Of a stretch of DNA of 64,000 nucleotides, positions 1,870 to 26,721 are shown piece by piece. The position numbers were made by a program, and so were the translations under genes. Location of the stretch: contig CACJPC010000002.1 of assembly GCA_902595195.1 (NCBI GenBank), forward strand, positions 42,270 through 106,269, written 5' to 3'. Position 1 is the stretch's first letter. Each line of letters opens with the position of its first letter. This DNA comes from an uncultured Candidatus Actinomarina sp. Its GTDB lineage: Bacteria; Actinomycetota; Acidimicrobiia; Actinomarinales; Actinomarinaceae. A model generated the notes under the pieces. It worked only from the letters and a program-made list of their open reading frames with translations, was not told the DNA's origin and made no database searches.

Positions 1870-2670
1870 TTAACTTTCGCAACAAAGTGCTATGTAATTT
1901 GCTAAATACTCTCTCTCATCTTCTTGTAGAACATTATTATCTCTGTAATATACATAATCTCCGCCGTAATAAAGAACTAATGCATCTGCAAATAATTCTT
2001 CACTACCAAAAAATTCTCGAGCTTTAGTTCGCTGATTTTCCCCTTCTGGATTAACACAAGTTCTTGTTAAAAATGAGAGAGCGTGTGCGGTTTCATGTAG
2101 TAATGTGTCGTAAGCTTTGTTATTTGCAAAAGCTTTATTAGACACCCATACTGACAATTTCCAGTTTGAATTGGTAGATCCATCTTTGAACGTTCCAGCA
2201 GAATCCCATACTCCAAAAGGACACCTATCCAAGATTGTTGCAGCATAAGAATGGCATCCATTGACAAAAATAACATTATTTTCGACAGATTTTCTCAACT
2301 CTTCTGGAAGAGTGTCTACTAATGCATCTAGATTAAACTGATTCTCACCTTCGAAACCATCAAAGGAAGTGAACTCACCAGTGTAAATTTCTGTATTTTC
2401 CTGACTGTCTGTATTAATAGTTACTGAGTCATCTTTTTCAGAGACTTCAATAGTTGTTGTGGTGGTAGGGATAGTTGTTGTTGTAGTTGAAGAAGTTGTT
2501 GTAGTTGAAGAAGTTGTTGTAGTTGAAGAAGTTGTTGTTGAAGAGTTTTGTGAATTTCCAATAGTAGCTTGAATACTAATTTCAATTGGATTGTTTAATA
2601 CATAAACGTATGAGGCAGTTAAAAAAGCTAGGATAGAAAATACAATAATTGTAGTAGTTTTACCACTCAT
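1870..2670 (-). CDS. TM-anchored secreted HExxH zincin-like metallopeptidase with a Thr/Ser-rich stalk (paralog of 20585..21514)
   Basis: N-terminal signal-anchor (TIIVFSILAFLTASYVYV). A (TTTTSS)n linker is encoded by perfect 18-nt tandem DNA repeats. The C-terminal domain has NGCHSY, LLHETAHALSF (HExxH) and VLYYGGDYVYY motifs shared with the 309-aa paralog. It overlaps the upstream gene by 11 nt. Confidence 0.6.
   Translation of the reverse strand: MSGKTTTIIVFSILAFLTASYVYVLNNPIEISIQATIGNSQNSSTTTSSTTTTSSTTTTSSTTTTTIPTTTTTIEVSEKDDSVTINTDSQENTEIYTGEFTSFDGFEGENQFNLDALVDTLPEELRKSVENNVIFVNGCHSYAATILDRCPFGVWDSAGTFKDGSTNSNWKLSVWVSNKAFANNKAYDTLLHETAHALSFLTRTCVNPEGENQRTKAREFFGSEELFADALVLYYGGDYVYYRDNNVLQEDEREYLANYIALCCES
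2483..2536. repeat. Three perfect 18-nt tandem repeats (gtagttgaagaagttgtt) encoding the (STTTTS)n linker of the 266-aa zincin
   Basis: Direct reading of 2481-2545: ttgtagttgaagaagttgttgtagttgaagaagttgttgtagttgaagaagttgttgttgaagag. Confidence 0.9.
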
Positions 2671-4258
2671 TAATAGATTCGCTTAACTCTTCATCTATCA
2701 TTCCAGAAATATCATCTTCTTTAATTTTTAAACTCTCTTCGTAATCTGCTGGTTTGTTTAACTCTGCATATTTTTTCATAAAATTACCTAACAAAAGAAT
2801 AATTAATATGTAAAAAAGTAGAACAAGCATAAATCTATATGCTAAAGAACCGCTTTGCAGTAGAGTTTGTTGTATTTCATTAAACTCGCTGTCCGGTGGC
2901 AAGACTAGAATTCTGATAAAAAGCCAAATACTTATTAAAAAACTCACAATCGGCATTGCTTGGTTGACACCATCAGAATCTTCAATAGCATCGAACAATT
3001 CATTACCACCCCATGGAACTGCTTTAAAAATTACTCCTTCCAAACACATTAAATATGTAAGTTTGCAAATTGCCATTAACACACCTGATGAGCTAACAGA
3101 TTCAAAAGAAGTTGCATAAAAGAAGAAATATCCCACAATTGAAAGGCTCATCATTGAATAAAATTTAGGAGAAAGATCTGCTTTAGGTCTTTTTGTGACT
3201 ACGTGGATTGCAGCAATGAAACCTAAAATAAAGCCAAAAGGAAGATCTATAACTATGAATAAAACCGTTGAAAGGATAGCAAAAAACATTGCCTGTGGAT
3301 TCCAATCAAGTTTAACGATTTGATCATAAACGTAATACTCTATTAGAGATTCAATTCCCTCATAACAAAATGTGACTACAACCAAGCCAAACAAGACGCC
3401 TAAAAATATTGCTAAATTTTCTTCGCGGACTGAAAATGTAAAACCCTCTTCAACAAAAGCATATAAAAGAGCCGTTACTAATGCTACAAGTGAAATCTCC
3501 ATAAAAGTTTCTAGTTTTGTTTTCTTTTTAAGCTCATTATTTCTTTTTGTCCATCTAACTCGATAATGAGAAATTATTCTGTTAAACCATTCTTGGGCAA
3601 GCAATACCCCATAAAATAGAAATATAATTCCTGAAGTTATCAATAAAGCAAAAGCATTTTTTTCTTGATCAGAAAAATTAATATCGCTAAATAAAGGGAT
3701 TGTTGTTATCAATTCGTTTGTAAAGTTGATATTTGTTGTATTTACTGTAGCTGAAGGTTCAGGTAAAGGTTCGTTCAAATCAACAATAGGATCAGGATCT
3801 TCAGGTTGAGGAACTTCTGGGAGATCTGGAATTGCATTAATCAAAAACTCCTCTGAGGTTATTTCAGTCGTGATGTCTCTATAGCAATAAATAGATTCGC
3901 AGTCAGGACCACTGTATTGAGTGTACTCTGTAGTAACAATTCTTAAAAACAGAGATAAATTAGTAGCACCATCCCAAGAAATAATTTCTGAACCAGTTTC
4001 TGAAAAACTTACTAATTCTAATGGGTCATTAATCAATCCATCAGCAGTAATTTCTCTAACTGAAAGAATAATTTGATCAATGTTTTCAACTCCAGTAATT
4101 TTCCAAGAGATTTGCAAGCTGTCTTGGTCTTTTCTGGCTGATTCAATTTCAATTGTAGCTTCATGATTATCTCTCAAGTTTTTATCTTTATAATCATTCG
4201 AAGCTACACCGTTAAAAAAAGTTAAGAATAATAATGTTGAAATAAAAAATTTTTTCAT
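2660..4258 (-). CDS. Integral membrane protein of unknown function: signal peptide, ~190-aa extracytoplasmic Pro/Asp/Glu-rich domain, ~8 TM helices, acidic C-terminal tail
   Basis: MKKFFISTLLFLTFFNGVAS signal peptide. Extracytoplasmic region PDLPEVPQPEDPDPIVDLNEPLPEPS. Then multiple hydrophobic helices. The start shares a nucleotide with the sortase stop (4258). Confidence 0.65.
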   Translation of the reverse strand: MKKFFISTLLFLTFFNGVASNDYKDKNLRDNHEATIEIESARKDQDSLQISWKITGVENIDQIILSVREITADGLINDPLELVSFSETGSEIISWDGATNLSLFLRIVTTEYTQYSGPDCESIYCYRDITTEITSEEFLINAIPDLPEVPQPEDPDPIVDLNEPLPEPSATVNTTNINFTNELITTIPLFSDINFSDQEKNAFALLITSGIIFLFYGVLLAQEWFNRIISHYRVRWTKRNNELKKKTKLETFMEISLVALVTALLYAFVEEGFTFSVREENLAIFLGVLFGLVVVTFCYEGIESLIEYYVYDQIVKLDWNPQAMFFAILSTVLFIVIDLPFGFILGFIAAIHVVTKRPKADLSPKFYSMMSLSIVGYFFFYATSFESVSSSGVLMAICKLTYLMCLEGVIFKAVPWGGNELFDAIEDSDGVNQAMPIVSFLISIWLFIRILVLPPDSEFNEIQQTLLQSGSLAYRFMLVLLFYILIILLLGNFMKKYAELNKPADYEESLKIKEDDISGMIDEELSESINEW

Positions 4259-5925
4259 TATCCAAAAACCTCAACTCTTTTTAGTTCACCAATAACAACA
4301 AGCCTTTGTCTAGCTGAAAATTTAGGATGACAAGTAGATAAAGTTATTCTGTCGTCACCAAAGTTTCCTAACACATAGGTATCTTCAGGCGAGACAATTT
4401 TTACTTCAGTTATTACATACTCATATTGATTGGTGTTAGTTTGAAATAATATAGAGTCACCAACCTCTGTTTTATCAAGATTTCCAAATGGCGCACCATA
4501 AGTAGTTCTATGGCCAGCAATAGCAAAATTACCTCCTGTACCAGGAAGTGATGTTCCCAAAATATATCCAGGTCCGTACTCTAATTTATTTAAAGTAGCT
4601 CCAAAAACCACATAATGGTTTATGTTTGCTGATAAAATTGTCAACCTACCAACAACATCAGGAAGAAATTCTGCCTTAGCTGCTTGATTGGTGAGTGTTT
4701 TACTAGCTATAGAAATAAAAGATTCTTGAAATTCATCTGTCTGTTGCAGATTACTTAGTGATACATCTGCACTTAAATTCTTACTCCTAAGTTCTGCAAG
4801 ATTCTCACTATTTACAGTAAATTTATTTTCGAGTAGTTCCTGTTCGTCATTAATAACGGATGTTGAAAACAAAGTTTGATTGATTGTGTAGGCAACAATA
4901 AAAAAACCAACCAACAAAAGACCTACAGCTAACGGAACAAGCGACCTTCTTGAAGGATTATTATTACTTACTTGTTTATAGGACCCTGCTCTTGCCTTAT
5001 TTCCATTTTTTTTTACTGATTGATCGAACTTCAACTTAGGAATATTTTTATGTTTTTCCACTGGTTTTTTTGTAAAAACTATTGAGAAACGATTTGATGT
5101 CATTAAATTGAGCTTTTCTCTTAGCATTTGTTCTGTAACTTCAATTCCAAGGTAATTTGCATTTTTAGATATGTTGCTTACAGCAGATGTCAAGTAGTCA
5201 ACTTCTTTTAACATTGAAACAATGTCTGTTATATAATTTTCAGGATCGGCGATTAGTGGATTAAACCTTTCGCTTACATCAATACTTATCATCACTTCTG
5301 TACCAAGAGCATTCTCAAGAATTTTTTTAAGCGTGTTTGATTTAACATATATTTCAGACAACTCAACCTCTAATCTTTGGTTCATAAAACCTAGTGAGCG
5401 CTGATTTTGAATTGTATCAGGAGAGACATAAAGCTGTGTGCCAGAATTTACTGAATCGCTAATATTTAGATTTTGTATTTCTTTCTGTTCATTTCCAACA
5501 TTTACATTCATAACATTATTAACTTGACTGCTAATTTCATTTGCAACATTAGGATTTTCTAATAGGAAAAATTTAGCTTTTTCTTTCCCATATCCAAGTT
5601 TTTCATCGCCATATAAATACCAATTTCCTTTTTTCTTGATTATTTTTTTCTTTACAGCAATATCTAAGAGTTGACCATCATAAAAAACTTCTGATTTATC
5701 TACTTCTATATCCTCGTACTCAACAACTATGTTGTTGTTTTGCTGTCGGTTGAAAAAAGAGAACTGTTTTTTAGGTTTTTTTTGATTTACATTGTCTTCA
5801 TCAACAATTGTTGCATCTGAAATTACATCAGCATCATTTACTTTTTTTCTTCTCCATTTCAAAACAGTTAATACTGCAAAAATATTGAGCATGATTATAA
5901 ACAAATATGCAAAGAAATATGACAT
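4258..5925 (-). CDS. Sortase (transpeptidase, TLxTC catalytic motif) fused to a ~300-aa N-terminal domain flanked by two TM helices
   Basis: C-terminal 200 aa: NFAIAGHRTTYGAPFGNLDKTEVGDSILFQT...YEYVITEVKIVSPEDTYVL...RITLSTCHPKFSARQRLVV, with the catalytic His, Cys (TLSTC) and Arg of sortases. TM1 (FAYLFIIMLNIFAVLTVL) is followed by KWRRKK. A second TM (LVPLAVGLLLVGFFIVAYTI) precedes the sortase domain. It lies immediately downstream of, and is coupled to, the LPVTG giant gene. Confidence 0.75.
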   Translation of the reverse strand: MSYFFAYLFIIMLNIFAVLTVLKWRRKKVNDADVISDATIVDEDNVNQKKPKKQFSFFNRQQNNNIVVEYEDIEVDKSEVFYDGQLLDIAVKKKIIKKKGNWYLYGDEKLGYGKEKAKFFLLENPNVANEISSQVNNVMNVNVGNEQKEIQNLNISDSVNSGTQLYVSPDTIQNQRSLGFMNQRLEVELSEIYVKSNTLKKILENALGTEVMISIDVSERFNPLIADPENYITDIVSMLKEVDYLTSAVSNISKNANYLGIEVTEQMLREKLNLMTSNRFSIVFTKKPVEKHKNIPKLKFDQSVKKNGNKARAGSYKQVSNNNPSRRSLVPLAVGLLLVGFFIVAYTINQTLFSTSVINDEQELLENKFTVNSENLAELRSKNLSADVSLSNLQQTDEFQESFISIASKTLTNQAAKAEFLPDVVGRLTILSANINHYVVFGATLNKLEYGPGYILGTSLPGTGGNFAIAGHRTTYGAPFGNLDKTEVGDSILFQTNTNQYEYVITEVKIVSPEDTYVLGNFGDDRITLSTCHPKFSARQRLVVIGELKRVEVFG

Positions 5926-8900
5926 TAATACCTATATTCTCTTCTAAGTATGAATGCTCCACAGGCAAAAAGCAATAACCCTACAGAGATTAATAGACCC
6001 CCAACATTCCTACCTGTCACTGGTAATGTGGTCCCTACAGAAGGTGGTGGTGTAGGATCTATAGGATCAGTGGGGAAGATCCCCTCTGCATCCTCATTGT
6101 AAACAAACTCAACATAATCATCACCTGGAAGGAACTGTAGTGACTCTCCATTGTCTAATACTTCTTCATTGTCATCTCCCTCAATTCTCATGACATTATC
6201 GATATTTTCATCTTCTTCAACATCAGGTAATGGGTTTTGATCTTCAGATAATGGAGTGTTATCTTGAATACAATCCGCATCTTTATTCTTAATCATCTTT
6301 TGAACTTTTTCATTTTGAGTATTTGTTACCTCTAGTGCAACTGTAAAGAATTTGTTTTCTCCAACTTCAATTGAGGAGAAGTCAATCATCTGACCAGCCG
6401 GTACTAGAACTGTCTGTTCTGCAATTAGGGTTGTATTAATCCAAATCTTCTTTAGAACTTCTGCATCTACATTAGATCTTGAGTTGTCTACTGTAATACC
6501 GAACTCTGCACCACCGTCTTCAAAATCACAAACCCTATTAGTTGAAATAAGTGGTTCAAAAATGTATGTATCTTGTGGAATTGTAGTTGGAGGAGTTGTT
6601 TCACAAATTGCTGTTTCTGCGTTTGAAATCTGATACGGAGCTGTTGGATCAAACTGTGTGTAGCTACTATCTAACGCTCTCCACTGAATTTCTTGGTTTT
6701 GATTTATTCTTAACAACCTGGTTGTAGAACTAGTTGGGTTAATTGTTATAGTTTCATAAGGTACCCAAGATCCATTATTAGATCCATCATTGATTCTGTA
6801 TTCAAGATAGAAAGTTTTTACTTCATTACTTAAATTTCTTATTTCAATAGTTGAATCTGCAACATTCGCAGAACATTCACCTATGGTTAAAATCAGTTCA
6901 GGATTATTAAGTGTACTGCCACACTCTATACCAGTTCTTGCATCAGTAAATTTATATTCGTTGTCACTTGTGCTCTTATATCTAAATACAATTGACTGTG
7001 ATTCTCCAATAGAAATTTTTGGAATCCTTAGTGTGGTATTTGGATTTACAGAGAGAACTGACCCTGATTGATACTGTCCATTATCTATCTTGTAATCGTA
7101 CATAACAGAAACGGCCTGTGAACCAAAGTTTGAAATTACAAGCTCTGCTTGTGGGCCTGTTGTAACCCCACCATTTTGTTGAGAACAAGTTATTTCTGTG
7201 AAGCCGCTCAAAGAACTAGCTTGGGAACAGTTTTCTGCTGTTCCAGAAGCAAATTTATACTCTGTCTCTGTAGAAGTTTTGTATCTCCATTGGAATGTAC
7301 TATTTGCTGGAACAGGATAAGGGTTGGTAGTAAAGTTCCCCATGACTGAAGTGTTTCCGACAGACTGCCAACCACCACCATTGATACTAATATCATAACT
7401 TACAACTACTGCAGTTGAGTTAGGGTTGATAATTGTCAATTTTGCTTGAGGGCTATTATTTATACACTCATTAGTAGTGTACGCACTTACAGAAGATGTT
7501 GTAGGTGAACAATCAGCGGGCGCCATAATATTTTCATACTGCCAATTATTTGGATTCGTTGCATTGTATATCCTATATCTGTAGATTATGAAATTTGTTG
7601 TCATTGTTTGATTAATGCTATAAGGCTGAGAACTTGTAATTGTCTGAATACCTTGTGAAGTCCAAGAAATGTTATTTGTACTATATCCAATTTCTACTTG
7701 AGCAGTATTTGATGAGGTATTAGAAATTGTAAATGTAGATTTCTTTACAGCAGCACTTCCGCTGACATCACAGGAAGTGTCTTGAGTTGCTGTCAAGTTT
7801 GCAGAAGTACAATCAACTGTTTGAGTTCTTGTTAAATATCGGTATGAAGCGTTTGAAAAGTCATTTTGTGTAGTTGTTGCAGCATATCTCCAAGTAATAT
7901 ATTGCCCAGAAGTTAGGTTTTTATAAATAGAGTTATCAACTTGACCAGCAGCAACACTTACAGTCGTCATATACTCATAACCACCATTGTTGACTGCGTA
8001 CTCAACTTTGTAGTACTGAGTAATAGTTCCTGTGTTGTTAATGGAGAGCTTAGAATCTCTACTCTGATTGGAACATGCCTCAAGTGTTTGTGTCACAGTT
8101 GAGGTTTGTGGACAATCAACTGTAAGAGCAGTAAGAGTTGTGTAATCATTAGACATAGAGCTTGAAAGGCCTAAACGGTACCTCCATTTAACAGTTGACC
8201 CATGAGGAGCTCCAGGAGCTTCTAAGACTTTCGGAGTTCCATTAGTAACTGCAGATGTTCCTTTAGATATCCAGCCATTGCCAATGTCGTACCATGCTTC
8301 AACATAAACTGTATCAGAAGAATTATTTGTGACCGTTAGCTCAGAAACTCTATTTCCTGCAACACAAGCTTTTAGAACATTGTTAATGGAGACTTGATTC
8401 AATACTTCAGTTTCACAATCAAGCGCTGGTATTGAACCAAACGTTGTTTCTGAAGCGGAAGCAAGCTTTGTAACTGTACCAGCATATTTATACTTCCAAC
8501 TAATAGTTTGTCCATTTATAACCGATTTAGTTAGTGTTAACTGGTTACCTGCTGTTATCTCCACTGTTGAAACCTCTGTAGACCATTCACCTGAATTCAT
8601 TGCTGAATGTACTGTTACAAGTAGTGGTGTAGATCCTGTGTTATTTAAAGTTAATGTAGATGTTGCAGTCTGATTAGAACATGTTCCCATTTGATGAACA
8701 ACTGAGATAAAAGTACCACAATCAACCTCAATTGCGCCACCAGCTAAAGTAGTAAAACTAATATTTGATAACGCTGCTGTACTGTAAGCGGCTTTATATC
8801 TCCACTCAATTGTTGAACCAGAAGTTACCGATTGAGAGGTACTTGTATTCACTCCTCCAACAACTACGCCATTTGAGGAAGTAACTTTATCTGTCCATGT

Positions 8901-11900
8901 TCCTCCATCAATTCTGTATTGAATGTGATAGTACGCAGGAGCAGGGCTAGAAGATAGCGTTCCGTAGTGGAATCTTGAAGATTTCGATCCACTCACACAT
9001 TGTCCAATTGAGGTATATGGAGTAGCAATATTTACACCAGTACAGTTCACAATTTCAGATGTGTCAGTTGTAGTCCAATTTAGTGTAGAGAAATCACTTC
9101 CAGTTTCTGAAATCTTATATCTCCATGTAATTGTCTCACCTTCAGATACAGACTCTGGTAAGAATGTTGACCCACCAGGATTTACTTGAACTTGATTTGC
9201 AGAAAGGGTCCAGTTTGAGCCACCATCTGTTGAGTACTCAGCTTTGTAATATAAAATTCCAGAACTTGAGTTGTTAATGTTGAGTTTTGAAGTCTTATAA
9301 CCGTTAGCATCACATGTTGTATCAAAAGTCACTGTAATATCTTCACCAGAAGAACAGGTGATTGTTCGTAAATCATCATTTGTCCAGTCAGTTGGAAGAT
9401 CTGCTACAGTTTTTGCTACTTTGTATCTCCATTGAACTGTCTGTCCTGTAGGAACAATCTGAGTGTGTGGATATTGTCCATCAACACCTAAGGTGATATC
9501 TGGTTTATCTACCCATCCAGCTCCGTTGACATTTACTTGTACTTTGAAGAGAGCAGAGGTTGTCGCATCTGCACTATTTTTAATAACGAATTTAACTTCT
9601 TTAGTGTTGTTATAACAAATACCAAAAGATGTTGTCACGCTAGGATCTATAGTCTCACAGTTGACAGTTGCAGACTGAATATAATCCACATATGATGCAG
9701 AAACTAGTCCACTTAAAGAAGTTGCAGCTTTATATCTCCATCTGATATATTTTCCAGAATCTACATTTTGGGTAAATTCGGCTGACTGCGTATTAGATCC
9801 AGCAGCTCCTAACGTCAGGTCAGTATCTGCTACGACATATCCAGTACTTCCTTGAATAAAATACTCAACTTGATAATAGACAGTTGTGTTTGTGTTATTC
9901 GTTAAAACATATCTTGAAACTGCAGAGTTGTCTATGCACTCATCAAGAGTTTGAGAAATAACTGTGTCTAATGAACAGTTCACTTCCTCGCTTGTTGCCT
10001 CAGTTATCCACGAATTAGGAGTTGTTGCGGAAGACATTGGGTAATATCTCCAAGTAATTGTTTGACCATCTGGAACCATAACAAAGGTAGTAGAGGATGT
10101 ACCTGGAATGACAGCAGAACCGGAGACTTTAGTAATCCAGTCAGATGAATCACCACTCAAGTCATACTGGATATAAAAATATGCTGGTGCGTTTGCAGAG
10201 GATGAGTTAGAAAAGGTAAATGTAGACTTTCTTTCTCCAGCTGTACATGCACCAAAGGAAGATGATCCTGTTCCCTCAAGTACTGGACAGTCAACAGTCG
10301 CTGATGCACTTAAGACAGTGTCTGTGATTCCTGTGTAGTCATTATTAGTATTGGTAACTTTATAACGCCAGATAATATTTTTTGTATGTGGTACCGCATG
10401 ATTGAGAGTTGTATCAGTCTCGCCTGGTGCAACCGCAAGGTTCGGACTCTTTAAAATCCATGAAGCTCCATTATCTAACGTATATTGGACTTGGAAGTAG
10501 ATAGTGTTTAAACTCTCATTGTTTTGTAAGCTAAGTGTAGAGAGCTGAGATCCAGAGTCACAAGAACCCATGATATTCGTTACAGTTACATCAATAACAC
10601 AGTTCACATAAGCACTTGTTGTATCCTCAGTCCAGACACCGGTAAAGGCCTCCGTTGTTTTTACAGATTCATATCTCCACTCAATCTTCTGTCCCTCTAA
10701 AATTTGTAAGTTATTAGTTGTCACAAGAGAGACACCTGGAGCGATTACAGAATTTACAATAGATGAGTTTGTCCAGTCAGTAACTGTGCCTGATGCATTA
10801 ACAATTTTATACTGTACATTAAACTTAGCTGCGGCTGTAGAAGAGCTTGTGTTAGTTACCTTAAAGGATGCCGCTCTGTAATTTTCAGCACAGGCAGTAT
10901 AAATTGCCTCTCCTGTGACAGCAGTAAATGGACAGTTGATAGTTTTTGTATCGGTGTAGTTCCACTCCTCTAAATTAAGATTATTCAAAACTTTATTTAC
11001 TTTATATCGAACCTGTACTGTTCCACCATGTGGAACAGTTACTTCAAGTGGATGATTTTCTGTTAGGCCGTTGCTTACAATTTCTGCAGTCTTAAATGCC
11101 TGCCACTCTGTATCAGAGTTTCTCTTATATTCAATAGTGAAGTATGCGGTATCAGTACTTGATGGCACTAATTGAATGACTGGAGTTGAGCTTCCGTTTC
11201 CACATGTTCCAACTGCTACATCTACTTCTACAGAACCACCATCACAACCACAATCTACAGTTGCACTTGCTGTTACTTCTTCCCACTCTTGTCCTTCGAA
11301 GTCACCACCATTAGTCGTATCTTTGACTCTCCATGTAATCGTTTGTCCATCAGGAACAAATTTAGATAGATCTGTATTGGTCGATCCAGCAGAGACCGAG
11401 ATATCGAACGCCGATTCTAAGGAGTCTGTGGCAGATTGCCAAGTAATACCTCCATCCAATGAATACTGCACCTTATAGTAAGAGGTGTAGTTGTCGTTAT
11501 TTGTTATTGATAATGTTGATGTTGCACCTAAATCATCGCACTCACAGGTTGTTAGTGTTTGTGAGTAGTCAGAGTCTGGGTCACAATCAACTTGAACATC
11601 TGTAGTGTTCACCATTACATGGTTCATAAAGTTTGTATTGAAGTCTCCAGTTATTGAACCACTAATGTTAGTGCCCTCATCATAACGTGTGAAAAATAGA
11701 CCTGTACTTGTTAATCCTCTTATGAATGCATACTCTGTTGGAGGTTCATCATAGCTATAGTATGTACTTCCACGATCATATATCTGATATGAACCATTGG
11801 TAGTATAGTAATCGTGATATCGAACATAACCCCACTTTATGGAAACAGTTTGGCCATTTGTTACCTGTACTGAAGGTAGGTTAAACGTTGTCGAGTTAGT

Positions 11901-14900
11901 AAGTTCATCCGTTTGTGTTACTGCTTTACTCCAACTAACACCACCATTTGTGGAATATTGATAAAACAATCTCGCTCTCTCATATGGTTCTAAATGAGTT
12001 ACAGTTGTATCTTCAAACTTGAACTCTATTTGACCCTTGTTTTCAAGACATGTTAGCTGTGTAGTTGTAAGAGTAACTGGTTGGATGTCGTTGCTATTAC
12101 AATCCGAGTCTGCAGCTACTGTAATAGTTGAGTAATCTCCGCTAAAGTTTTCCATATATTTTGTAGAAGTGTTGCTTGTGTAAGTTCTGTATCTAATTTG
12201 ATACTCATGTGTTGAGTCAAGCAAGATAACACTTGCTACATATTCACTTGAGCTAAAGTAATAGGGCCTGATATAACCAAAATATGTAGAACTATTCCCA
12301 GTTACGCCACCATAATCGTGATGTTTATACCAATATGAATAACTTTCATTTGAATACTGCATATTTCCAAAAGGCTTCCAGGTATTGCCATCATGTGAAA
12401 TCTCAACTTGAAAATGAACATATGTGTTAGAAGAGATAGAACTAGAATCTCTATTAAGTTTTAATTCAAGTTTATCAGCACCATATAAGCTACAAGATAC
12501 ATAGTCTGTTGAGAAGTAAATTGGATCTGAGCTTGAACTTCCTACTGAGACTCCACAGTCTACCGTATTTGTAAAAGAAAATTCCGTCTCGTAGTAACTA
12601 CCATTTGGAGTTCCCTCTATACGATAGGATATTTGTACTACATCTCCATCTGAATAGGTCCCAAATAGTTGATGTGTTATGCCTGTTGAAGTAGGAGCTA
12701 GTGTAATAGTTCTATAATCACCGTACTCACCATCATTTACTTTAACTTTATAAACAAAGTAATTGGTCTCAGTATTTCCGTAATAATAAAATTCAAACTT
12801 TTGTTCATTGTTATAACATTGCGATCCAGCATATACAGCTCGTACAATTTTTTGGGTGACACTATTTGTACAGTCAATAAGCAATGTTGATGTGTTCGTA
12901 AAGTCTCCACTTGTTACAGGTGAAGTAGCAGCATATCTATAACGCATAACTACAGTGGTTCCCTGAGAGACAGTATCTTGAATTGTATAAGTCTTTACTT
13001 CACCAGGTAAAAGCATCTGATAAATGACAGCATTGCTGTTTGTTGAATCATAAAATGCTTCTTCCCATGTGCTACCTAAATCAGTTGAGTACTGAACGTG
13101 GAAATAACCTGTTGCCCAACCATTATTGCCGAGTGTAATTGATGGTGTTGCACCACCTGAGACACAAGTGCCTAAAGCAATTGATGCTGTACTAGCACCA
13201 ACAGTAGGACAGTTAACAGTTTTTACTGCTGAATAGTAGAGTTTTGAGTTACTAAAATCTCCACTAGTATAAGAAAACTTAAACTTATACTGCACAGTTC
13301 CTGCGTGGTTAACAGTGACAGTGTCTGTATATGACGTGCCTACAGCAAGATTAGATTCAATATCAATCCAATTAGATCCACCATCTATAGTCCTGGAAAC
13401 ATTCAGATAATACTGCGTACCAGCAGGTCTTGTCACAGTAAATGTTGCCGTTGCAAACCCTCCTGCTTCTAAAGTATTTTGACACTCTCCAATAGTGACT
13501 AGGTCGCTGTACGTATCATCCGTAGAATCAGTAGTTGTTGCTGTTCCCCAGTTAGTAGTTGTAATGACAGGATCACAATTTGTTGTACGCTGTTCAACAG
13601 TTTTATTGTAATTTCCGAAAACAACCCAGTCAGTTGAAGCAAGTTCGCTTTCAGCATATGCGACTTTGTATCTAATTTTCATTATGGAGCCAGATAATGC
13701 TCGAGTTGAAAGGTAAATAAAATCTTTACTGCCGCTTTGCTCCTGATTTATATAATTTGTTGTCTGCACTGCTGTATAGCCGTCAACTGCCAGACTTCCT
13801 GTAACGCTGCTATCTAAAACTGCACGATCATCATTGTATGAATCAGAACTGTCAAGTTTATAGAATAAGTCATTTTTGGTCCAATTATCACCATCATCAA
13901 GAGAGATTTCAAATGCATACCAAAGAGCTGATCTGTTTGCGTCATTATAGTTTGAGTTGTACATCACCCAACCCATCCACTGTTTGTTATCAACACAGCT
14001 ATTAACTACATTGGATGGTTCAGTTTCATATTGATAAGAACTACTACTCCATGGGCCAATATTTAAATCACAATCGTGATGCCAACTAAGACCATTTGAA
14101 GGAGAGCTTAAATATTGTTCTTCATAAATACCCGTATTCCATGAAGGGTTTTCAGTATAAGACTTCTGAATTCTCCACCCCATATACGCATCTGCTTCAT
14201 TTGTATATGTTTTTGCTCCAGCTGTGTAAACCAAAGTTTCCCCTGCAGCAATCGAGAATGTTGTTGAATCTGAACTGTTGTATGCTGATCCAGTATTGTA
14301 GCTATACGGGTTAGCAGTTTTTGTCGGTGTTACTTTAAAATATACTGTTTCTGACTCATTATTCGTGAGAGTTAAAGTAGAGGTCTGACCTGCAGAACTA
14401 CATGCTGTTACTTCATAGCTTGCTGTAACTGATGGATTGCAATCGTTGTATTGATAACCTGTGTACTTATAAGGATACCCAGTGGTATTATTCCAATCAG
14501 GATTTTCAATATACGAACCTTGAACAATCCACTGCATATAACCCTCAGTACCATCAGGGTATAGTTTTCTCATATCTGGACTAGTGGTAGCATCATATGT
14601 TAGAGTTTCGCCAGCTGGGACTGAGAAATAAATTGCAGCTGACCAATCTATATAGCTCGAATTTGGTGAATTGATACTGTTAGATGAAGTTTTAGTAGGT
14701 GCGGCTTTAAAGTACAACGTCTGTGCTTCATTATTGGTTACAGAGAGTGTTGAGTACCTTCCAACAGCGGCACAAGAACTAAAGGATGCTGACTGTGTAA
14801 AGTCTGCAACACAGTTTGCTTGTCTACTAAAGACTGCCCATGCAGCATTTGCTGTTGAGTCTGTTGGGTTTGTCTCAGCAATACGATACCTAAAATATCC

Positions 14901-17198
14901 TGTTGCAGATGAAGCAATAGTTTCTGGTGCTGAAAAAGTAAGTGATTGACCGTCGGCAAGAGCTGTCCCATCTGCGACCTCCGTCCAATTAACATTATCT
15001 GGCGAAAACTCTACATCAACAAAACCGCCATAACTGTCATTTGTTGCATTGAAGTTTGTTAGTGTAAGTCGTATGGTTGCATTACCGGAACCATCACAGA
15101 TTTGAGAAGTGCTCTGAGAAACTCTAGTGTAATTGGCAGTGCTGTTTGTTGATTCTCCACCATTACCCCACCAGTTACAATCTACAGCACTAGGTGCAGT
15201 CCATCGAACCCAGGAATCTCCAGATTTTAATTCATTACCATAAGATCTTGAAGTGAACGTACCTTCAGTGTGTGAAGAAGAGTATAAATCTGTTGAACGA
15301 TATTGATAGTAGCTTGTACCATACACCATTTTAAATTCTGGAATAACGCCATGATAAACGTTTGCTGTGTATGTATAAGTTTGGCCGGCATTGATTGTAC
15401 GGCCCCATTGATCTTGCCAGCTAAAAGCACTTGAACCTACAGAAGTTCGTTTTGCATGTGCAAAATACATTGATGTGTTTCCAGTATTAGTGAGTGTGAC
15501 ATTATAGGTTACAAAGTCGTTGTTACAGGTTCCATTTGTGGTTGCAGTAATTGTACCTGAGTAGGTTTTACAATCTATAGTTCTACTCGTAGCTGATGTA
15601 AACCCTGATGTAGCTGTTGGATTAGCATCTGCAACGATGTACTGAAAATATACTGTCTGAGCATTTGCTACTGTTGTTGGCATGCTGATTGTCTCTGGTG
15701 TTCCTGAGACAACTAACTCACCATCTATAAAGGTTATCCAAGTACCACTTGAGCCAATCTTGTACTGTACATCAAAATATGCATTTGTTGTACCTGTATT
15801 TGTTAGTGTTACTGATGGTGTTGAAGAACCTCCATCACATGTCCCAGCAGCAGTATCTACTGTACCTGCAGCATAATCACCACATCCAGAACCTGTTAAT
15901 AAATCCCCTACTATATACATTGTTCCACTTGATGGATTTGAAGAGTTGTACCGCATTCGATACTCCACCGTCTGACCTTGGTATACAGCTGGTGCACCTG
16001 TTGCAGAGAACTGTCCACCTGGCGATATCTGCGTTCCGTCTAATAGTCCTACCCAGCTTCCACCAGCAATTCTGTAATCTACATCAAAATACTGTGTTGT
16101 TTGCTTGTTGTTAGTAATAAGGAGTGCTGGCTGTTGATAACCGCTTGCACATTCACCAATTGAGGTTTTAAAGGATGGAGCAAACGGATCATATGCATTT
16201 GGTCCGCAGGAAGCACCGTCTGTATTATCACTTGTAAATGTTGTTCCTTTTGTAGCTACGTTATATTGATTAGTTCCAGTTCTCTTAACTTCAAATCTAT
16301 TTCCAAGACCATCATCAATAATGAAACGAATCTCTCCCTCTGGAGTTTTATAGGTATAGCTAGCAAGTGTTGCTGAGACACCGCTGAATGCTGCATTTGT
16401 TGGTGTGACTTCTGAAATAGCATTGTTGTCTTTATCATAAAGAACAACTTTGTTAGCTAAAGCATTATATGTTGCAAGCTCATATCCATCCCAGTCACCA
16501 ATATATGAAAAGTCAGCAGCATTAATATGAGTAGTCATGCCGGGATCAGCAAACGTTGTTACTCCACCAGTATCAACGTTATAGATGTAGCCATGCTTGA
16601 AACCAGCCTGTGCCATATATATCTGATCATTACCATTTGCATTCACGACATATTCACCAGATGAGAATCCGTAGTAACCGTTTACACCGTCATAAAAGTT
16701 CTCATCACCAACTTGGGTATAGTCAGCAATATGAGCGAGAGGTGTAAGTACACCTTCAGTACTAATAGTAAAGAGATGTGTACCATGTCCATCAGAGGTA
16801 ATCGTTACATACATAACACCTGTTGGTGACATCGCTAACGCGTTAATACCTTTTACATTTCCTGCAATATTGGATGTAGAACTAAAGTCTACTGTTGTTG
16901 TTGTTCGTTGAATAGTTGTTGTCTCTGTAGCTACATATTGATCAATAGTGAAGCTAGTTGACGTATAGTCCCAATCTAATTTATAAAAGTATGCTCTTGC
17001 ATACGCATCATTACAATCCCAGTTAGCAGTTGCATACGCCTCTTCCTGTGGCACTGCCCATGATGAGATGAACACGATGGTAAATAGAGCAATATATGTT
17101 GTTGTTTTGAGTATTGTTCTGATAGTTGACGAGTTGATATAAGACCTCAAATTTAAATATGTGTAAATAAATTTATTACTCATAACACTCAACAACAT
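5925..17198 (-). CDS. Giant (3757 aa) cell-wall-anchored surface protein: signal peptide, ~330-aa N-terminal domain, ~30 divergent Ig/FN3-like ~110-aa repeats, C-terminal LPVTG sorting signal
   Basis: 11.3 kb uninterrupted ORF. C-terminus LPVTGRNVGGLLISVGLLLFACGAFILRREYRY is a sortase sorting motif followed by a hydrophobic stretch and a basic tail. Repeats are bounded by Cys (..VDC..) and share TLTLTNNxxxxxYFxVxY...W.....GQTIxWRYK-like motifs. Thr/Ser/Asn/Gly/Tyr-rich composition. Confidence 0.9.
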   Translation of the reverse strand: MLLSVMSNKFIYTYLNLRSYINSSTIRTILKTTTYIALFTIVFISSWAVPQEEAYATANWDCNDAYARAYFYKLDWDYTSTSFTIDQYVATETTTIQRTTTTVDFSSTSNIAGNVKGINALAMSPTGVMYVTITSDGHGTHLFTISTEGVLTPLAHIADYTQVGDENFYDGVNGYYGFSSGEYVVNANGNDQIYMAQAGFKHGYIYNVDTGGVTTFADPGMTTHINAADFSYIGDWDGYELATYNALANKVVLYDKDNNAISEVTPTNAAFSGVSATLASYTYKTPEGEIRFIIDDGLGNRFEVKRTGTNQYNVATKGTTFTSDNTDGASCGPNAYDPFAPSFKTSIGECASGYQQPALLITNNKQTTQYFDVDYRIAGGSWVGLLDGTQISPGGQFSATGAPAVYQGQTVEYRMRYNSSNPSSGTMYIVGDLLTGSGCGDYAAGTVDTAAGTCDGGSSTPSVTLTNTGTTNAYFDVQYKIGSSGTWITFIDGELVVSGTPETISMPTTVANAQTVYFQYIVADANPTATSGFTSATSRTIDCKTYSGTITATTNGTCNNDFVTYNVTLTNTGNTSMYFAHAKRTSVGSSAFSWQDQWGRTINAGQTYTYTANVYHGVIPEFKMVYGTSYYQYRSTDLYSSSHTEGTFTSRSYGNELKSGDSWVRWTAPSAVDCNWWGNGGESTNSTANYTRVSQSTSQICDGSGNATIRLTLTNFNATNDSYGGFVDVEFSPDNVNWTEVADGTALADGQSLTFSAPETIASSATGYFRYRIAETNPTDSTANAAWAVFSRQANCVADFTQSASFSSCAAVGRYSTLSVTNNEAQTLYFKAAPTKTSSNSINSPNSSYIDWSAAIYFSVPAGETLTYDATTSPDMRKLYPDGTEGYMQWIVQGSYIENPDWNNTTGYPYKYTGYQYNDCNPSVTASYEVTACSSAGQTSTLTLTNNESETVYFKVTPTKTANPYSYNTGSAYNSSDSTTFSIAAGETLVYTAGAKTYTNEADAYMGWRIQKSYTENPSWNTGIYEEQYLSSPSNGLSWHHDCDLNIGPWSSSSYQYETEPSNVVNSCVDNKQWMGWVMYNSNYNDANRSALWYAFEISLDDGDNWTKNDLFYKLDSSDSYNDDRAVLDSSVTGSLAVDGYTAVQTTNYINQEQSGSKDFIYLSTRALSGSIMKIRYKVAYAESELASTDWVVFGNYNKTVEQRTTNCDPVITTTNWGTATTTDSTDDTYSDLVTIGECQNTLEAGGFATATFTVTRPAGTQYYLNVSRTIDGGSNWIDIESNLAVGTSYTDTVTVNHAGTVQYKFKFSYTSGDFSNSKLYYSAVKTVNCPTVGASTASIALGTCVSGGATPSITLGNNGWATGYFHVQYSTDLGSTWEEAFYDSTNSNAVIYQMLLPGEVKTYTIQDTVSQGTTVVMRYRYAATSPVTSGDFTNTSTLLIDCTNSVTQKIVRAVYAGSQCYNNEQKFEFYYYGNTETNYFVYKVKVNDGEYGDYRTITLAPTSTGITHQLFGTYSDGDVVQISYRIEGTPNGSYYETEFSFTNTVDCGVSVGSSSSDPIYFSTDYVSCSLYGADKLELKLNRDSSSISSNTYVHFQVEISHDGNTWKPFGNMQYSNESYSYWYKHHDYGGVTGNSSTYFGYIRPYYFSSSEYVASVILLDSTHEYQIRYRTYTSNTSTKYMENFSGDYSTITVAADSDCNSNDIQPVTLTTTQLTCLENKGQIEFKFEDTTVTHLEPYERARLFYQYSTNGGVSWSKAVTQTDELTNSTTFNLPSVQVTNGQTVSIKWGYVRYHDYYTTNGSYQIYDRGSTYYSYDEPPTEYAFIRGLTSTGLFFTRYDEGTNISGSITGDFNTNFMNHVMVNTTDVQVDCDPDSDYSQTLTTCECDDLGATSTLSITNNDNYTSYYKVQYSLDGGITWQSATDSLESAFDISVSAGSTNTDLSKFVPDGQTITWRVKDTTNGGDFEGQEWEEVTASATVDCGCDGGSVEVDVAVGTCGNGSSTPVIQLVPSSTDTAYFTIEYKRNSDTEWQAFKTAEIVSNGLTENHPLEVTVPHGGTVQVRYKVNKVLNNLNLEEWNYTDTKTINCPFTAVTGEAIYTACAENYRAASFKVTNTSSSTAAAKFNVQYKIVNASGTVTDWTNSSIVNSVIAPGVSLVTTNNLQILEGQKIEWRYESVKTTEAFTGVWTEDTTSAYVNCVIDVTVTNIMGSCDSGSQLSTLSLQNNESLNTIYFQVQYTLDNGASWILKSPNLAVAPGETDTTLNHAVPHTKNIIWRYKVTNTNNDYTGITDTVLSASATVDCPVLEGTGSSSFGACTAGERKSTFTFSNSSSANAPAYFYIQYDLSGDSSDWITKVSGSAVIPGTSSTTFVMVPDGQTITWRYYPMSSATTPNSWITEATSEEVNCSLDTVISQTLDECIDNSAVSRYVLTNNTNTTVYYQVEYFIQGSTGYVVADTDLTLGAAGSNTQSAEFTQNVDSGKYIRWRYKAATSLSGLVSASYVDYIQSATVNCETIDPSVTTSFGICYNNTKEVKFVIKNSADATTSALFKVQVNVNGAGWVDKPDITLGVDGQYPHTQIVPTGQTVQWRYKVAKTVADLPTDWTNDDLRTITCSSGEDITVTFDTTCDANGYKTSKLNINNSSSGILYYKAEYSTDGGSNWTLSANQVQVNPGGSTFLPESVSEGETITWRYKISETGSDFSTLNWTTTDTSEIVNCTGVNIATPYTSIGQCVSGSKSSRFHYGTLSSSPAPAYYHIQYRIDGGTWTDKVTSSNGVVVGGVNTSTSQSVTSGSTIEWRYKAAYSTAALSNISFTTLAGGAIEVDCGTFISVVHQMGTCSNQTATSTLTLNNTGSTPLLVTVHSAMNSGEWSTEVSTVEITAGNQLTLTKSVINGQTISWKYKYAGTVTKLASASETTFGSIPALDCETEVLNQVSINNVLKACVAGNRVSELTVTNNSSDTVYVEAWYDIGNGWISKGTSAVTNGTPKVLEAPGAPHGSTVKWRYRLGLSSSMSNDYTTLTALTVDCPQTSTVTQTLEACSNQSRDSKLSINNTGTITQYYKVEYAVNNGGYEYMTTVSVAAGQVDNSIYKNLTSGQYITWRYAATTTQNDFSNASYRYLTRTQTVDCTSANLTATQDTSCDVSGSAAVKKSTFTISNTSSNTAQVEIGYSTNNISWTSQGIQTITSSQPYSINQTMTTNFIIYRYRIYNATNPNNWQYENIMAPADCSPTTSSVSAYTTNECINNSPQAKLTIINPNSTAVVVSYDISINGGGWQSVGNTSVMGNFTTNPYPVPANSTFQWRYKTSTETEYKFASGTAENCSQASSLSGFTEITCSQQNGGVTTGPQAELVISNFGSQAVSVMYDYKIDNGQYQSGSVLSVNPNTTLRIPKISIGESQSIVFRYKSTSDNEYKFTDARTGIECGSTLNNPELILTIGECSANVADSTIEIRNLSNEVKTFYLEYRINDGSNNGSWVPYETITINPTSSTTRLLRINQNQEIQWRALDSSYTQFDPTAPYQISNAETAICETTPPTTIPQDTYIFEPLISTNRVCDFEDGGAEFGITVDNSRSNVDAEVLKKIWINTTLIAEQTVLVPAGQMIDFSSIEVGENKFFTVALEVTNTQNEKVQKMIKNKDADCIQDNTPLSEDQNPLPDVEEDENIDNVMRIEGDDNEEVLDNGESLQFLPGDDYVEFVYNEDAEGIFPTDPIDPTPPPSVGTTLPVTGRNVGGLLISVGLLLFACGAFILRREYRY
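6012..6026 (-). other. LPVTG cell-wall sorting signal codons in the giant protein
   Basis: Reverse complement of ttaccagtgacaggt reads L P V T G, followed by a hydrophobic segment and RREYRY-stop. Confidence 0.85.
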
Positions 17199-17277
17199 TT
17201 TTAATTAGATTTAATTCTAATTAACTTAACATTAGTTTAACTGGAATTCATTTAAAGTAAAATGATTTTTTAAAAAT

Positions 17278-17898
17278 TTAGTACTGTTTTAGTATGTTTT
17301 CGACAAGATTTGAGGAAGTTTTAAGAAAAAACTCTTCTGAATATCTATTAAACAGTTCATGATCTCCAATATTTAACGCATATTCAAACATCGCTCCCCT
17401 AAATGCAGTGGCTATATTCACAGCAATTTCTTCCGCTCCGTCCTTGTATTGCTCAGAATTACTCAATAAAACTGTAATCGCTTGAACCGGATCTTGGTCT
17501 AACCATTTATTAACATTAACTAAATTAAACATTTGTACAACAACAACCTTTCCTGCATATCCGAGACTTACAAGGTTCTCAGCATATGTAACTGGAATCT
17601 TCTTTAATTTCTCAATTACGGTTAAGGAGTCGTCTGCAAGTGTGGCACCCATGTTTGCTGCTACATCCATTTTTGAATGCACAATTGCTGAAAATACATC
17701 TTCCATTCTGTCAGGAAAATGATTGTAAGCTGTTGCAGGTGATACACCAGCTTCTTTTGCAATTTGAGTAAGAGTGACTTCTCTAATATCTCCAACTTCA
17801 TTAATTACATCAACAGCTGTATCAATAAGTTTTGTCCTATTGAGGTCAAAAATATCTTGCTGTCTACGTGCTCTTCCGTCTTGTTGGATATCAGTCAT
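17278..17898 (-). CDS. TetR-family transcriptional regulator
   Basis: N-terminal HTH with the TetR signature TLTQIAKEAGVSPATAYNHFPDR. 206 aa. Confidence 0.85.
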   Translation of the reverse strand: MTDIQQDGRARRQQDIFDLNRTKLIDTAVDVINEVGDIREVTLTQIAKEAGVSPATAYNHFPDRMEDVFSAIVHSKMDVAANMGATLADDSLTVIEKLKKIPVTYAENLVSLGYAGKVVVVQMFNLVNVNKWLDQDPVQAITVLLSNSEQYKDGAEEIAVNIATAFRGAMFEYALNIGDHELFNRYSEEFFLKTSSNLVENILKQY

Positions 17899-26616: not shown

Positions 26617-26627
26617 TTCAAAATTGA

Positions 26628-26702
26628 TGGCTGGGGGAGAAGGACTCGAACCCTCAACGATGGGACCAAAACCCATTGTGTTGCCAATTACACCATCCCC
26701 CA
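26628..26702 (-). tRNA. tRNA-Gln (anticodon UUG), CCA encoded
   Basis: Reverse complement: TGGGGGATGGTGTAATTGGCAACACAATGGGTTTTGGTCCCATCGTTGAGGGTTCGAGTCCTTCTCCCCCAGCCA. Acceptor stem 7 bp (U1-A72). Anticodon stem ATGGG/CCCAT, loop TTTTGGT giving UUG. T-loop TTCGAGT. Discriminator G plus CCA. Close to E. coli tRNA-Gln. tRNA-Gln also sits upstream of glmU-prs in mycobacteria. Confidence 0.9.
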
Positions 26703-26721
26703 ATTGTTATGCAAATATATT

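Follow-up and report, generated by a model that had tools for sequence, protein, structure and literature searches.

What does Candidatus Actinomarina, among the smallest free-living cells and abundant in surface oceans, build with a surface-protein gene of 11.3 kb, and which of the genes around it take part? The envelope of these bacteria is little characterised. We addressed this question in a 64,000-nucleotide stretch of an uncultured Candidatus Actinomarina genome (GenBank assembly GCA_902595195.1, contig CACJPC010000002.1, positions 42,270 to 106,269; hereafter the window), in which an initial annotation had proposed an operon of four minus-strand genes encoding a giant repeat protein, a sortase, a membrane protein and a zinc protease. 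We are highly confident in the core of our answer, a giant fibre protein served by its own dedicated sortase. The whole account, in which a conserved surface module builds one very long, covalently wall-anchored fibre and the accessory proteins have roles in it, we consider probable.

Organization of the module

The genes in question all lie on the minus strand:

5925..17198, minus strand: giant surface protein gene, 3757 aa (open reading frame (ORF) and translation)
4258..5925, minus strand: class-E-like sortase gene, 555 aa (Pfam, NCBIfam, invariant triad and transmembrane (TM) segments)
2660..4258, minus strand: membrane protein gene, 532 aa, a putative divergent relative of NCBIfam NF041501 'cola_mem'
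1870..2670, minus strand: membrane-anchored metalloprotease gene, 266 aa (HExxH protein)
17278..17898, minus strand: TetR-family regulator gene, 206 aa (Pfam TetR_N)

The four ORFs originally proposed lie where they had been placed, and their sharing of stop and start nucleotides is real: the giant/sortase and sortase/membrane protein junctions both read TAATG, and the membrane protein and protease genes overlap by 11 nt. That the host would be a streamlined actinobacterium was also guessed correctly, as the relatives of the window (G+C ~33%) are single-amplified genomes (SAGs) and metagenome-assembled genomes (MAGs) of Candidatus Actinomarina. A single transcript remains plausible in view of the shared stops and starts, but "almost certainly" overstated the case, because such overlaps are ordinary in this genome: ∼11 of the 27 same-strand neighbour pairs of the window overlap, most remaining pairs are 2-6 nt apart, and the median intergenic spacer in Actinomarinales is 2 bp (PMC7771536). 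Overlap alone therefore does not single out the module genes. The module occupies ∼1.4% of the genome, taking the Actinomarinales genome size of 1.10 Mb (Table 1, PMC7771536), and the whole window contains one sortase and one ORF with a sorting signal. The main Actinomarinales genome paper mentions no sortase and no giant protein (PMC7771536), and we found no literature linking Actinomarinales to either, which in an incompletely searchable literature is absence of evidence.

The giant protein is predicted to be a rod of Ig-like units ending in a sorting signal

Read from its N terminus, the giant protein is divided as follows:

17031..17198, minus strand: N-terminal signal region, aa 1-56 (read from the translation)
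16209..17030, minus strand: head domain, aa 57-330 (∼275 aa; alignment with sister clades)
6270..16208, minus strand: 29 Cys-bracketed units of ∼95-173 aa (typically ∼105), aa 331-3643 (Cys spacing, profile and AlphaFold2 (AF2))
6027..6269, minus strand: acidic/Pro-rich stalk, aa 3644-3724 (ortholog C termini)
5928..6026, minus strand: cell-wall sorting signal (C terminus of the giant protein)
6012-6026, minus strand: LPVTG sorting motif, aa 3725-3729
5949-6005, minus strand: TM helix of the sorting signal, aa 3732-3750 (hydrophobic stretch of 19 residues)
5928-5948, minus strand: basic tail RREYRY (extreme C terminus)

The sorting signal has all three parts of the LPXTG type, namely the motif, a stretch of ∼20 hydrophobic residues and, at the very C terminus, a basic tail. 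The textbook signal described in the initial annotation is thus present, and it is kept in all orthologs (8 Actinomarina loci) as [LIFY][PAG]xTG, a TM helix and a basic tail. Within Actinomarina the motif itself reads LPVTG, IPFTG, FAPTG, FADTG, FARTG or YGPTG; what stays constant is the TG, the helix and the basic tail. Directly before it, the stalk (...FPTDPIDPTPPPSVGTTLPVTG...) carries a ...DPTPPPS... tract as well as a conserved motif, FLPGDD(F/Y)VE(F/W)VY(N/D)EDA, which in the window reads FLPGDDYVEFVYNEDA.

Most of the protein is the repeat array. Its composition is rich in Thr, Ser, Asn and Gly, and its 63 cysteines form C-x13-C pairs with ∼90 aa between pairs, which delimit 29 units where about 30 divergent, Cys-bounded repeats had been claimed. 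We trained a profile on units 13-24 only, holding out units 1-12 and 25-28 and using 20 shuffles of the protein as a control. The profile recovered the held-out units with i-Evalues mostly of 1e-18 to 1e-4 (two pieces were weaker) and had no match in the 20 shuffles. Unit 29 is too divergent for the profile; it is bounded by Cys and aligns with the terminal unit of the sister-clade proteins described below. Because pairwise identity among units is 17-34% and Tandem Repeats Finder (TRF) found no DNA-level tandem repeat in the gene, the array appears to be old, without recent expansion.

An AF2 model of unit 16, run on an alignment of the window's own 28 units, is a beta-sandwich of six long strands and one short one (predicted local distance difference test score (pLDDT) 94.3). 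A Foldseek search of this model against the PDB returned generic Ig/fn3-like sandwiches (best E = 3e-3, TM-score at most 0.53), so we assigned no family from the fold. No Pfam or NCBIfam family scored above threshold for the giant protein, for single units or for the head, and the known adhesin and stalk families (Pfam Big, fn3, Cadherin, CARDB, SdrD_B, Rib and others) gave no match at threshold; matches to BNR, Reelin, CHB_HEX_C and Glycolipid_bind were all below threshold and were set aside. We are confident that the modelled unit has an ordinary Ig-like beta-sandwich fold and belongs to an undescribed sequence family. The repeat has therefore not turned out to be an ordinary known adhesin domain in a widely annotated arrangement, since no family matches it and the arrangement is confined to one lineage. 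In the model the long first strand ends with the second Cys of a pair, and the next Cys comes after the last strand, which makes one disulfide staple per domain likely.

The N-terminal parts are less regular. The signal region has the hydrophobic core YIALFTIVFISSWAV followed by PQEEAYA, with a putative cleavage site. The head domain is 23% identical to the sister-clade heads and terminates in an SxNTDGAxCG motif. It may be beta-propeller-like; the hints are weak and inconsistent, consisting of a match to a designed Kelch protein over one 42-aa stretch and of a match to the COPA beta-propeller (E = 1.5e-4) for sister-clade head sequences only.

A class-E-like sortase carrying a RecA C-terminal domain

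The gene immediately downstream does encode a sortase, as first annotated: Pfam PF04203 matches aa 428-548 with 104.7 bits against a cutoff of 26.6 (E = 3.5e-30), and the catalytic residues H472, C532 (in TLSTC) and R541 are invariant in 8 orthologs, so that neither the triad nor the sorting signal has been lost among relatives. The best-scoring NCBIfam class is class_E_sortase (NF033747), at 106.1 bits yet below its cutoff of 160, and sister-clade homologs are named class E sortases by NCBI. Class E enzymes have a conserved Tyr in the beta3/beta4 loop (PMC5148588); the window sortase has an invariant Tyr, Y454 in GPGY, while its PDB alignment to SrtE1 (5cuw) starts only at aa 457. Set against the LAXTG of class E, the sorting motif is LPVTG in the window and IPFTG or FA[PDR]TG in close genera; in sister clades it is LA[AE]TG, MADTG or LANTG.

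What the initial annotation overlooked are the two-TM topology and the cytoplasmic region of this enzyme. A first helix (TM1, aa 4-22) is followed by the cytoplasmic region, a second helix (TM2, aa 330-348) and the extracellular catalytic domain (aa 428-548); we placed the ∼300 residues between the helices in the cytoplasm because basic residues follow TM1 and precede TM2. Two segments of this region stand out:

5512..5676, minus strand: RecA C-terminal-domain homolog, sortase aa 84-138 (Pfam RecA_C)
5026..5370, minus strand: conserved cytoplasmic domain, sortase aa 186-300 (shared with sister-clade fused sortases)

The first matches Pfam RecA_C (PF21096) over profile positions 1-55 of 57, with 69.8 bits against a cutoff of 27 (E = 2e-19). 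Its alignments to many PDB entries fall on RecA residues ∼270-330; it is identical to E. coli RecA at 26 of 61 positions and has a core (KKG-W-Y-EK-YGK-KAK-LLENP) that is invariant in 8 orthologs whose sortases are 53-71% identical overall. The protein is not a RecA recombinase, as TIGR02012 scores 45 bits against a cutoff of 325 and matches only at profile positions 266-320. Judged from these alignments, the segment is a bona fide RecA C-terminal domain. It is not present in the sister-clade sortases (P0238, P0251 and eight others read). The second segment is highly conserved across orthologs, is matched by sister-clade P0238 and P0251, and has no Pfam and no PDB match. We found no description of a sortase with a RecA domain in the literature, as far as it is searchable.

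Substrate and sortase are fused in sister clades

An initial homolog search with the sortase gave only sequences at least 98% identical to it. Diversity came from joining aa 140-420 of the sortase to the membrane protein and to aa 90-266 of the protease, and searching 1.84 billion representative proteins exhaustively with this concatenated query, in which the matched stretch shows which protein part was hit. This search returned 127 hits in total for the three proteins. Two of them, P0238 and P0251, are distant matches to the cytoplasmic segment of the sortase. In both, a terminal repeat unit comes first, followed by an acidic linker, by LAATG or LAETG, and by a hydrophobic helix and then SRKKK; from there the frame stays open through the conserved cytoplasmic domain and a second helix to the sortase domain. 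With P0251 as query, a homolog search gave 81 protein clusters, some of which carry the NCBI name 'class E sortase [Candidatus Actinomarina sp.]'. We read eight of these, and the fusion was present in all ten sequences read (the eight together with P0238 and P0251). The eight carry LAETG, LAATG, MADTG or LANTG, preceded by as many as two units that belong to the window's repeat family. In every sister-clade sequence seen, the junction from sorting signal to sortase is uninterrupted.

The fusion is also present in independent assemblies (L016-L018 and L023-L026). In L016 there is an upstream ORF of 1644 aa, with a signal peptide, a homologous head and ∼13 units; nothing but a scaffold gap of 100 N, which falls within a poly-Thr linker, separates it from the fused portion. 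In L017 and L018, contigs that begin with sequencing adapters, the fused ORF is open up to the genomic edge, and in L023-L025 it is open from head to sortase through N gaps. An N-free contig of 236 kb, L026, spans the whole ∼2870-aa fused gene (L026:2736-11362), with three frameshifts in conserved motifs. Indel errors of long reads are the probable cause, with a pseudogene or programmed frameshifting as alternatives. Two oddities at contig starts, an in-frame stop in L018 and the unusual beginning of L017, were set aside as non-genomic because both are Illumina/Nextera adapter sequence. The public contigs carry Illumina P5/P7 and Nextera mosaic-end adapters at L017:1-70 and L018:1-60, and these produce the false stop in L018.

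The topology of the fusion is consistent, with the fibre outside, a helix leading inward, the cytoplasmic domain, a helix leading outward and the sortase outside. Read this way, the TM helix of the sorting signal doubles as the first TM helix of the sortase. Because this topology is self-consistent, the window clade looks like the split form, in which each product has its own helix and basic tail and a ∼160-aa insertion bearing RecA_C follows the first helix of the sortase. Whether split or fusion came first, the fusion implies a dedicated enzyme-substrate pair. The dedication of the sortase to the giant protein, as first proposed, is thus strongly argued by these sequences: the genes are adjacent in every case, and in sister clades substrate and enzyme share one ORF. 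We found no description of a natural substrate-sortase fusion in the literature, which could be searched incompletely.

Conservation and strain variation

We found the window's sortase sequence unchanged in 135 blocks of marine metagenome assemblies, Tara among them. A species scan (one genome per species) gave nine loci with sortases 53-71% identical to that of the window: five Candidatus Actinomarina SAGs or MAGs, one Acidimicrobiaceae SAG and three short contigs under other bin names. Wherever a contig is long enough, the order giant protein, sortase, membrane protein, protease and SBF transporter is kept, so the comparison of synteny across relatives that had been called for showed both a retained gene order and a confinement of the arrangement to this lineage. 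The giant ORF is open for >3300 aa in the N-free SAG loci L008, L010, L012 and L015. The five-gene module, with the TetR gene relocated, is retained as far from the window species as a lineage in which Rho is 84.5% identical.

Within this conserved order the proteins change quickly. Between two genera with 98%-identical Rho and PrfA, identity is 55% for the sortase, 63% for the membrane protein and 52% for the protease; because module proteins are 42-63% identical where Rho and PrfA are 98%, we regard the module as a fast-evolving surface feature. The giant gene was also compared with that of L001, a strain with an identical sortase. The downstream genes and the 3' end of the giant gene are 99.6-100% identical, most of the 5' two-thirds is 93-98% identical, and one stretch diverges further:

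11455..12932, minus strand: hypervariable stretch of the giant gene, approximately units 10-12, with long insertions (72-87% identity to L001)

This mosaic divergence suggests recombination or diversifying selection on the distal units, and the variability of these units suggests that the fibre faces selective pressure from outside. An apparent variation of repeat number in L002-L006 was rejected, as the 'gaps' are runs of N in scaffolds. Separately, module contigs have been binned as Flavobacteriales, Methanobacteriota, Gammaproteobacteria and Nitrosopumilaceae (L007, L009, L013 and protein P0329), probably through mis-binning.

The 532-aa membrane protein

The membrane protein has a signal peptide, an ectodomain of ∼180 aa with a Pro/acidic linker, a TM region (aa 202-494) and an acidic cytoplasmic tail. 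Seven strong hydrophobic segments and one or two weaker ones give 8-9 TM helices, and the original "8-TM" was a fair approximation. NCBIfam NF041501 'cola_mem' matches in part, with 47.4 bits and thus below its cutoff of 150. More distant hits of the concatenated search (P0225-P0260) score 177-298 bits on the same model and share motifs with the window protein, namely FN after TM1, Y(E/D)G, P-x-A-I, PGxIxGF and LEG..F..(V/L)P. The protein is thus a putative divergent relative of cola_mem, linked to it transitively through P0225-P0260 only. In these distant proteins the membrane module follows Kelch, fn3, C-type lectin or other ectodomains. The TM region is almost invariant across genera, the protein is the best conserved of the module, and a profile of the membrane module had no match in the PDB. 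We predict that it is a membrane machine under strong constraint, with a binding domain that faces outward. Elsewhere, a genome of 34% G+C (L019:2039-10037) has a 45%-identical, paralog-like gene of 678 aa, divergent from the gene for a secreted protein of 1816 aa in which lectin-like modules are repeated four-fold and a sorting signal is absent; the two may be a further pair of a large surface protein and a cola_mem-like protein.

The membrane-anchored protease

The last gene of the module encodes a tethered enzyme with these parts:

within 1870..2670, minus strand: TM helix, protease aa 7-25 (N-terminal helix)
within 1870..2670, minus strand: Ser/Thr-rich stalk, protease aa 41-73
2477..2538, minus strand: perfect 18-bp x3.4 tandem DNA repeat encoding the SSTTTT protease stalk (TRF)
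within 1870..2670, minus strand: ATLF/PPEP-like zincin domain, protease aa 93-266 (174 aa; H192-E193-xx-H196, E225 and D229)

Sequence profiles did not place the protein in the group of the anthrax lethal factor-like fold (ATLF, MEROPS M34) and the Pro-Pro endopeptidases (PPEPs): there is no Pfam family match, no Pfam ATLF hit, and the PDB profile match has just E = 0.013. Motif and fold did. The HETAH at aa 192-196 and the downstream Glu on an EExxA helix are present, and HExxH and the third-ligand helix EExxA(D/E) align in register with PPEP-1. Across 24 diverse family members H192, E193, H196, E225, D229, Y242 and two Cys are invariant. In a Foldseek search of the AF2 model (pLDDT 96.8), the top 13 matches were anthrax lethal factor/Certhrax. 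The HExxH zincin of the initial annotation is therefore borne out, and we conclude that the protease is a distant lethal-factor-like gluzincin of a previously unannotated family; a profile search for homologs listed only Actinomarina-like 'hypothetical proteins', and homologs in other actinobacteria lie on short contigs that say little about their neighbourhood. The stalk varies among strains with identical sortases, giving proteins of 266, 289 and 299 aa, and short-read assemblies often break at the tandem repeat (2477-2538) that encodes it.

Distant members of the family carry peptidoglycan-binding-like repeats (a weak PG_binding_1 in P0247, with similar repeats readable in P0168) or PDZ/Lon modules, which would place the protease domain in the wall zone. 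The PPEP-1 and PPEP-2 genes lie beside those of their substrates (PMC12828418); that article cites work in which PPEP-1 cleaves LPXTG cell-surface proteins. PMC8610288 reports PPEPs proper only from Firmicutes. In most Actinomarina orthologs of the giant protein a Pro-Pro precedes the sorting motif.

The TetR gene and the flanks of the module

Describing the module as four genes was right as far as it went and overlooked a fifth, the TetR-family gene that lies 79 nt upstream of the giant gene (Pfam TetR_N, 32.3 bits against a cutoff of 24, E = 8e-8). In sister clades its homolog lies between the sortase and the membrane protein: in L017, L023 and L026 a 213-aa gene follows the sortase and matches the TetR gene over its full length with 29% identity (E = 2e-22). 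Having changed place without leaving the module, the gene probably encodes the regulator of the module. Between it and the giant gene lie the following:

17199..17277, minus strand: AT-rich intergenic leader of the giant gene (sequence)
17204-17255: 26-bp x2 direct repeat in the leader (TRF)

The leader also holds a TTAATT-AG-AATTAA palindrome. The repeat and the palindrome are a candidate promoter or operator, and could possibly have arisen by chance in DNA so AT-rich. A promoter and terminator scan was uninformative, with sites fewer or no more than in shuffled sequence.

The genes flanking the fused sister loci (hom, thrC ... SBF, rho, rpmE, prfA) are those around the window module. The SBF/bile-acid:sodium symporter-family gene (977-1837), the next one downstream of the module, evolves just as fast as the module genes, with 61% identity between genera with 98%-identical Rho, and might belong with it functionally. 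Elsewhere in the window we noted a tmRNA gene (34982-35319, tag AKPKLALAA) and a tRNA-Gln(ttg) gene (26628-26702); the mechanical ORF 25252..26703 runs over the latter, so its start was placed too far out.

Discussion

We propose that the giant protein would be exported via its N-terminal signal and present, outside the cell, a head domain followed by 29 Ig-like units, each probably stapled by a disulfide, in a rod of ∼100 nm. The C-terminal LPVTG-TM-RREYRY would hold it in the membrane until the sortase, by analogy with sortase biology, cuts between Thr and Gly and transfers the fibre to a peptidoglycan precursor. The RecA_C domain may be a protein-interaction module recruited into the cytoplasmic region of the sortase. 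The zinc protease, tethered on a mucin-like stalk, could trim or shed the fibre at its Pro-rich stalk, as PPEP-1 and PPEP-2 would suggest, the cola_mem-like membrane protein would be an extremely conserved partner, and the TetR regulator that travels with the module probably controls it.

Since this genome has shed two-component systems, mobile elements and most regulators yet keeps an 11.3-kb gene and four helpers, the fibre must matter in the plankton. Candidate roles are adhesion, spacing or a protective coat, and an interface with phages or grazers; its strain-variable distal units make the fibre a candidate interface with phages, grazers or particles. The fused genes are Rosetta-stone proof of a one-enzyme/one-substrate pair and a natural model for cis-acting sortases, RecA_C in a sortase is an unexpected use of that domain outside RecA, and three families now merit characterisation: the Ig-like repeat, a lethal-factor/PPEP-like protease in Actinobacteria, and a branch of cola_mem.

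Several observations weigh against this account. The sortase falls under the NCBIfam class E cutoff, and the sole fused locus that is fully spanned without N has three frameshifts, the others crossing N gaps. Canonical cola_mem genes do not lie beside sortases, and the Pro-Pro tract is missing in some Actinomarina orthologs and in two sister-clade stalks (P0238, P0251). Wall anchoring, the disulfides and the length of the fibre are things we infer. Gene overlap and conserved order are genome-wide, and the flanking housekeeping genes are syntenic too, which leaves the association of the accessory proteins weak; their case rests instead on location, small lineage-restricted families, evolutionary rates, the mobile TetR gene and the PPEP analogy.

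The account could be wrong in its extent or in its chemistry. The functional unit may comprise no more than the giant protein and its sortase, with the other two, membrane protein and protease, as unrelated envelope neighbours in a genome that is compact, gap-free and syntenic throughout. Genes that overlap or abut are the norm in the window, the flanking hom-thrC and SBF-rho-rpmE-prfA keep their order equally well, synteny in Actinomarinales is described as well preserved (PMC7771536), and sortase-free occurrences are seen both for canonical cola_mem genes and for a paralog of the membrane protein. This would leave unexplained, however, that all four proteins belong to the envelope and to very small families restricted to this lineage (127 hits in 1.84e9), that they evolve at similar fast rates, unlike the flanking Rho and PrfA, and that the TetR gene moved and is still inside the module; the PPEPs also provide a precedent for protease genes beside adhesin substrates. 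We judge the restricted version unlikely, if worth keeping in mind. A fibre that is not linked to the wall, either because the sortase is mainly a release protease or because the fibre stays anchored in the membrane, would fit the unusual variability of the sorting motif at positions 1-3, and the wall of such ultra-small cells may itself be unusual. The conservation of the tripartite signal and of the catalytic His, Cys and Arg speaks against it, and to our knowledge characterised sortases of this kind all act as transpeptidases; we consider it very improbable and retain the wall-anchored fibre.

The two unexpected parts of the module invite similar caution. The RecA_C segment could be a decaying, functionless relic of a captured recA fragment, and the enzyme evidently works without it in the sister clades, all of which lack it. 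A relic would hardly keep an invariant core across genera in which sortases are just 53-71% identical, nor score so far above the Pfam threshold, and we find this reading improbable. Our own proposal is that the natural fusion anchors its substrate in cis or in strict 1:1 ratio, and that the window represents a split descendant whose sortase acquired RecA_C at the cytoplasmic face, where it could couple assembly to a cytoplasmic partner or state; this seems to us close to an even call, though just short of one. For the protease, cleavage of the Pro-rich stalk to trim or shed the fibre is a tentative suggestion drawn from the PPEPs. It could instead act on the wall or in maturation, opening or remodelling peptidoglycan for the threading or attachment of a 400-kDa protein, or removing a pro-segment. 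The peptidoglycan-binding-like repeats and PDZ/Lon modules of its distant relatives, and the fact that the Pro-Pro tract is not universal in fibre stalks, point in that direction. Against this, its closest solved relatives (PPEP-1/-2/-3 and lethal factor) are endopeptidases on folded or linker proteins, not muropeptidases, and we found no similarity to known peptidoglycan hydrolase families. A wall or maturation role is distinctly unlikely in our view, and stalk cleavage remains our working suggestion.

Comparison with known systems

LPXTG-anchored fibrillar adhesins made of tandem Ig-like domains are known in Gram-positive bacteria, for example SasG/Aap and the Rib-domain 'periscope' proteins. 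The window protein shares their plan of a signal peptide, a head, a beta-sandwich stalk array and a C-terminal LPXTG, TM helix and basic tail. It differs in its repeat, which belongs to no described family, is ancient, ∼25% identical and Cys-bracketed, and shows no DNA-level tandem repeat, and in its host, a free-living planktonic oligotroph with a ∼1.1-Mb genome that is not host-associated. Pilus and adhesin clusters with their own dedicated sortase (class C and others) likewise encode the substrate beside its cognate enzyme and in the same orientation; in contrast to those clusters, the window has a single substrate, we saw no pilin polymerisation motifs, and the sister clades have a fusion.

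Among sortases, the nearest relatives are SrtE1 and SrtE2 of class E, which share with the window enzyme an actinobacterial origin, the best-scoring class, LAXTG-type signals (in the sister clades) and a cytoplasmic N-terminal region. In Streptomyces coelicolor, SrtE1 needs its cytoplasmic N-terminal segment in vivo (PMC5148588). The window sortase stands apart in its score (106 against a cutoff of 160), its two TM helices enclosing a ∼300-aa cytoplasmic region, its RecA_C and its LPVTG motif, and the sister-clade enzymes in being fused to their substrate. The protease resembles PPEP-1 (Zmp1, Clostridioides difficile), PPEP-2 (P. alvei) and ATLF/M34 in the register of HExxH and EExxA(D/E) and in its best structural matches, and like the PPEP-1 and PPEP-2 genes its gene is clustered with that of a surface protein bearing a Pro-rich stalk; unlike the PPEPs, it is tethered by a TM helix and a Ser/Thr stalk instead of being secreted, and has conserved Cys pairs. 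The membrane protein has in common with NF041501 cola_mem (FGLLP motif-containing membrane protein) a multi-pass module after a variable ectodomain, with shared motifs, whereas canonical members have lectin, Kelch or fn3 ectodomains and no sortase context, and the window protein reaches 47 bits against the required 150. We conclude that the sortase-anchored giant fibre module is of an already known kind, and that its repeat family, its RecA_C-bearing class-E-like sortase, the natural fusions and the two uncharacterised accessory families are new.

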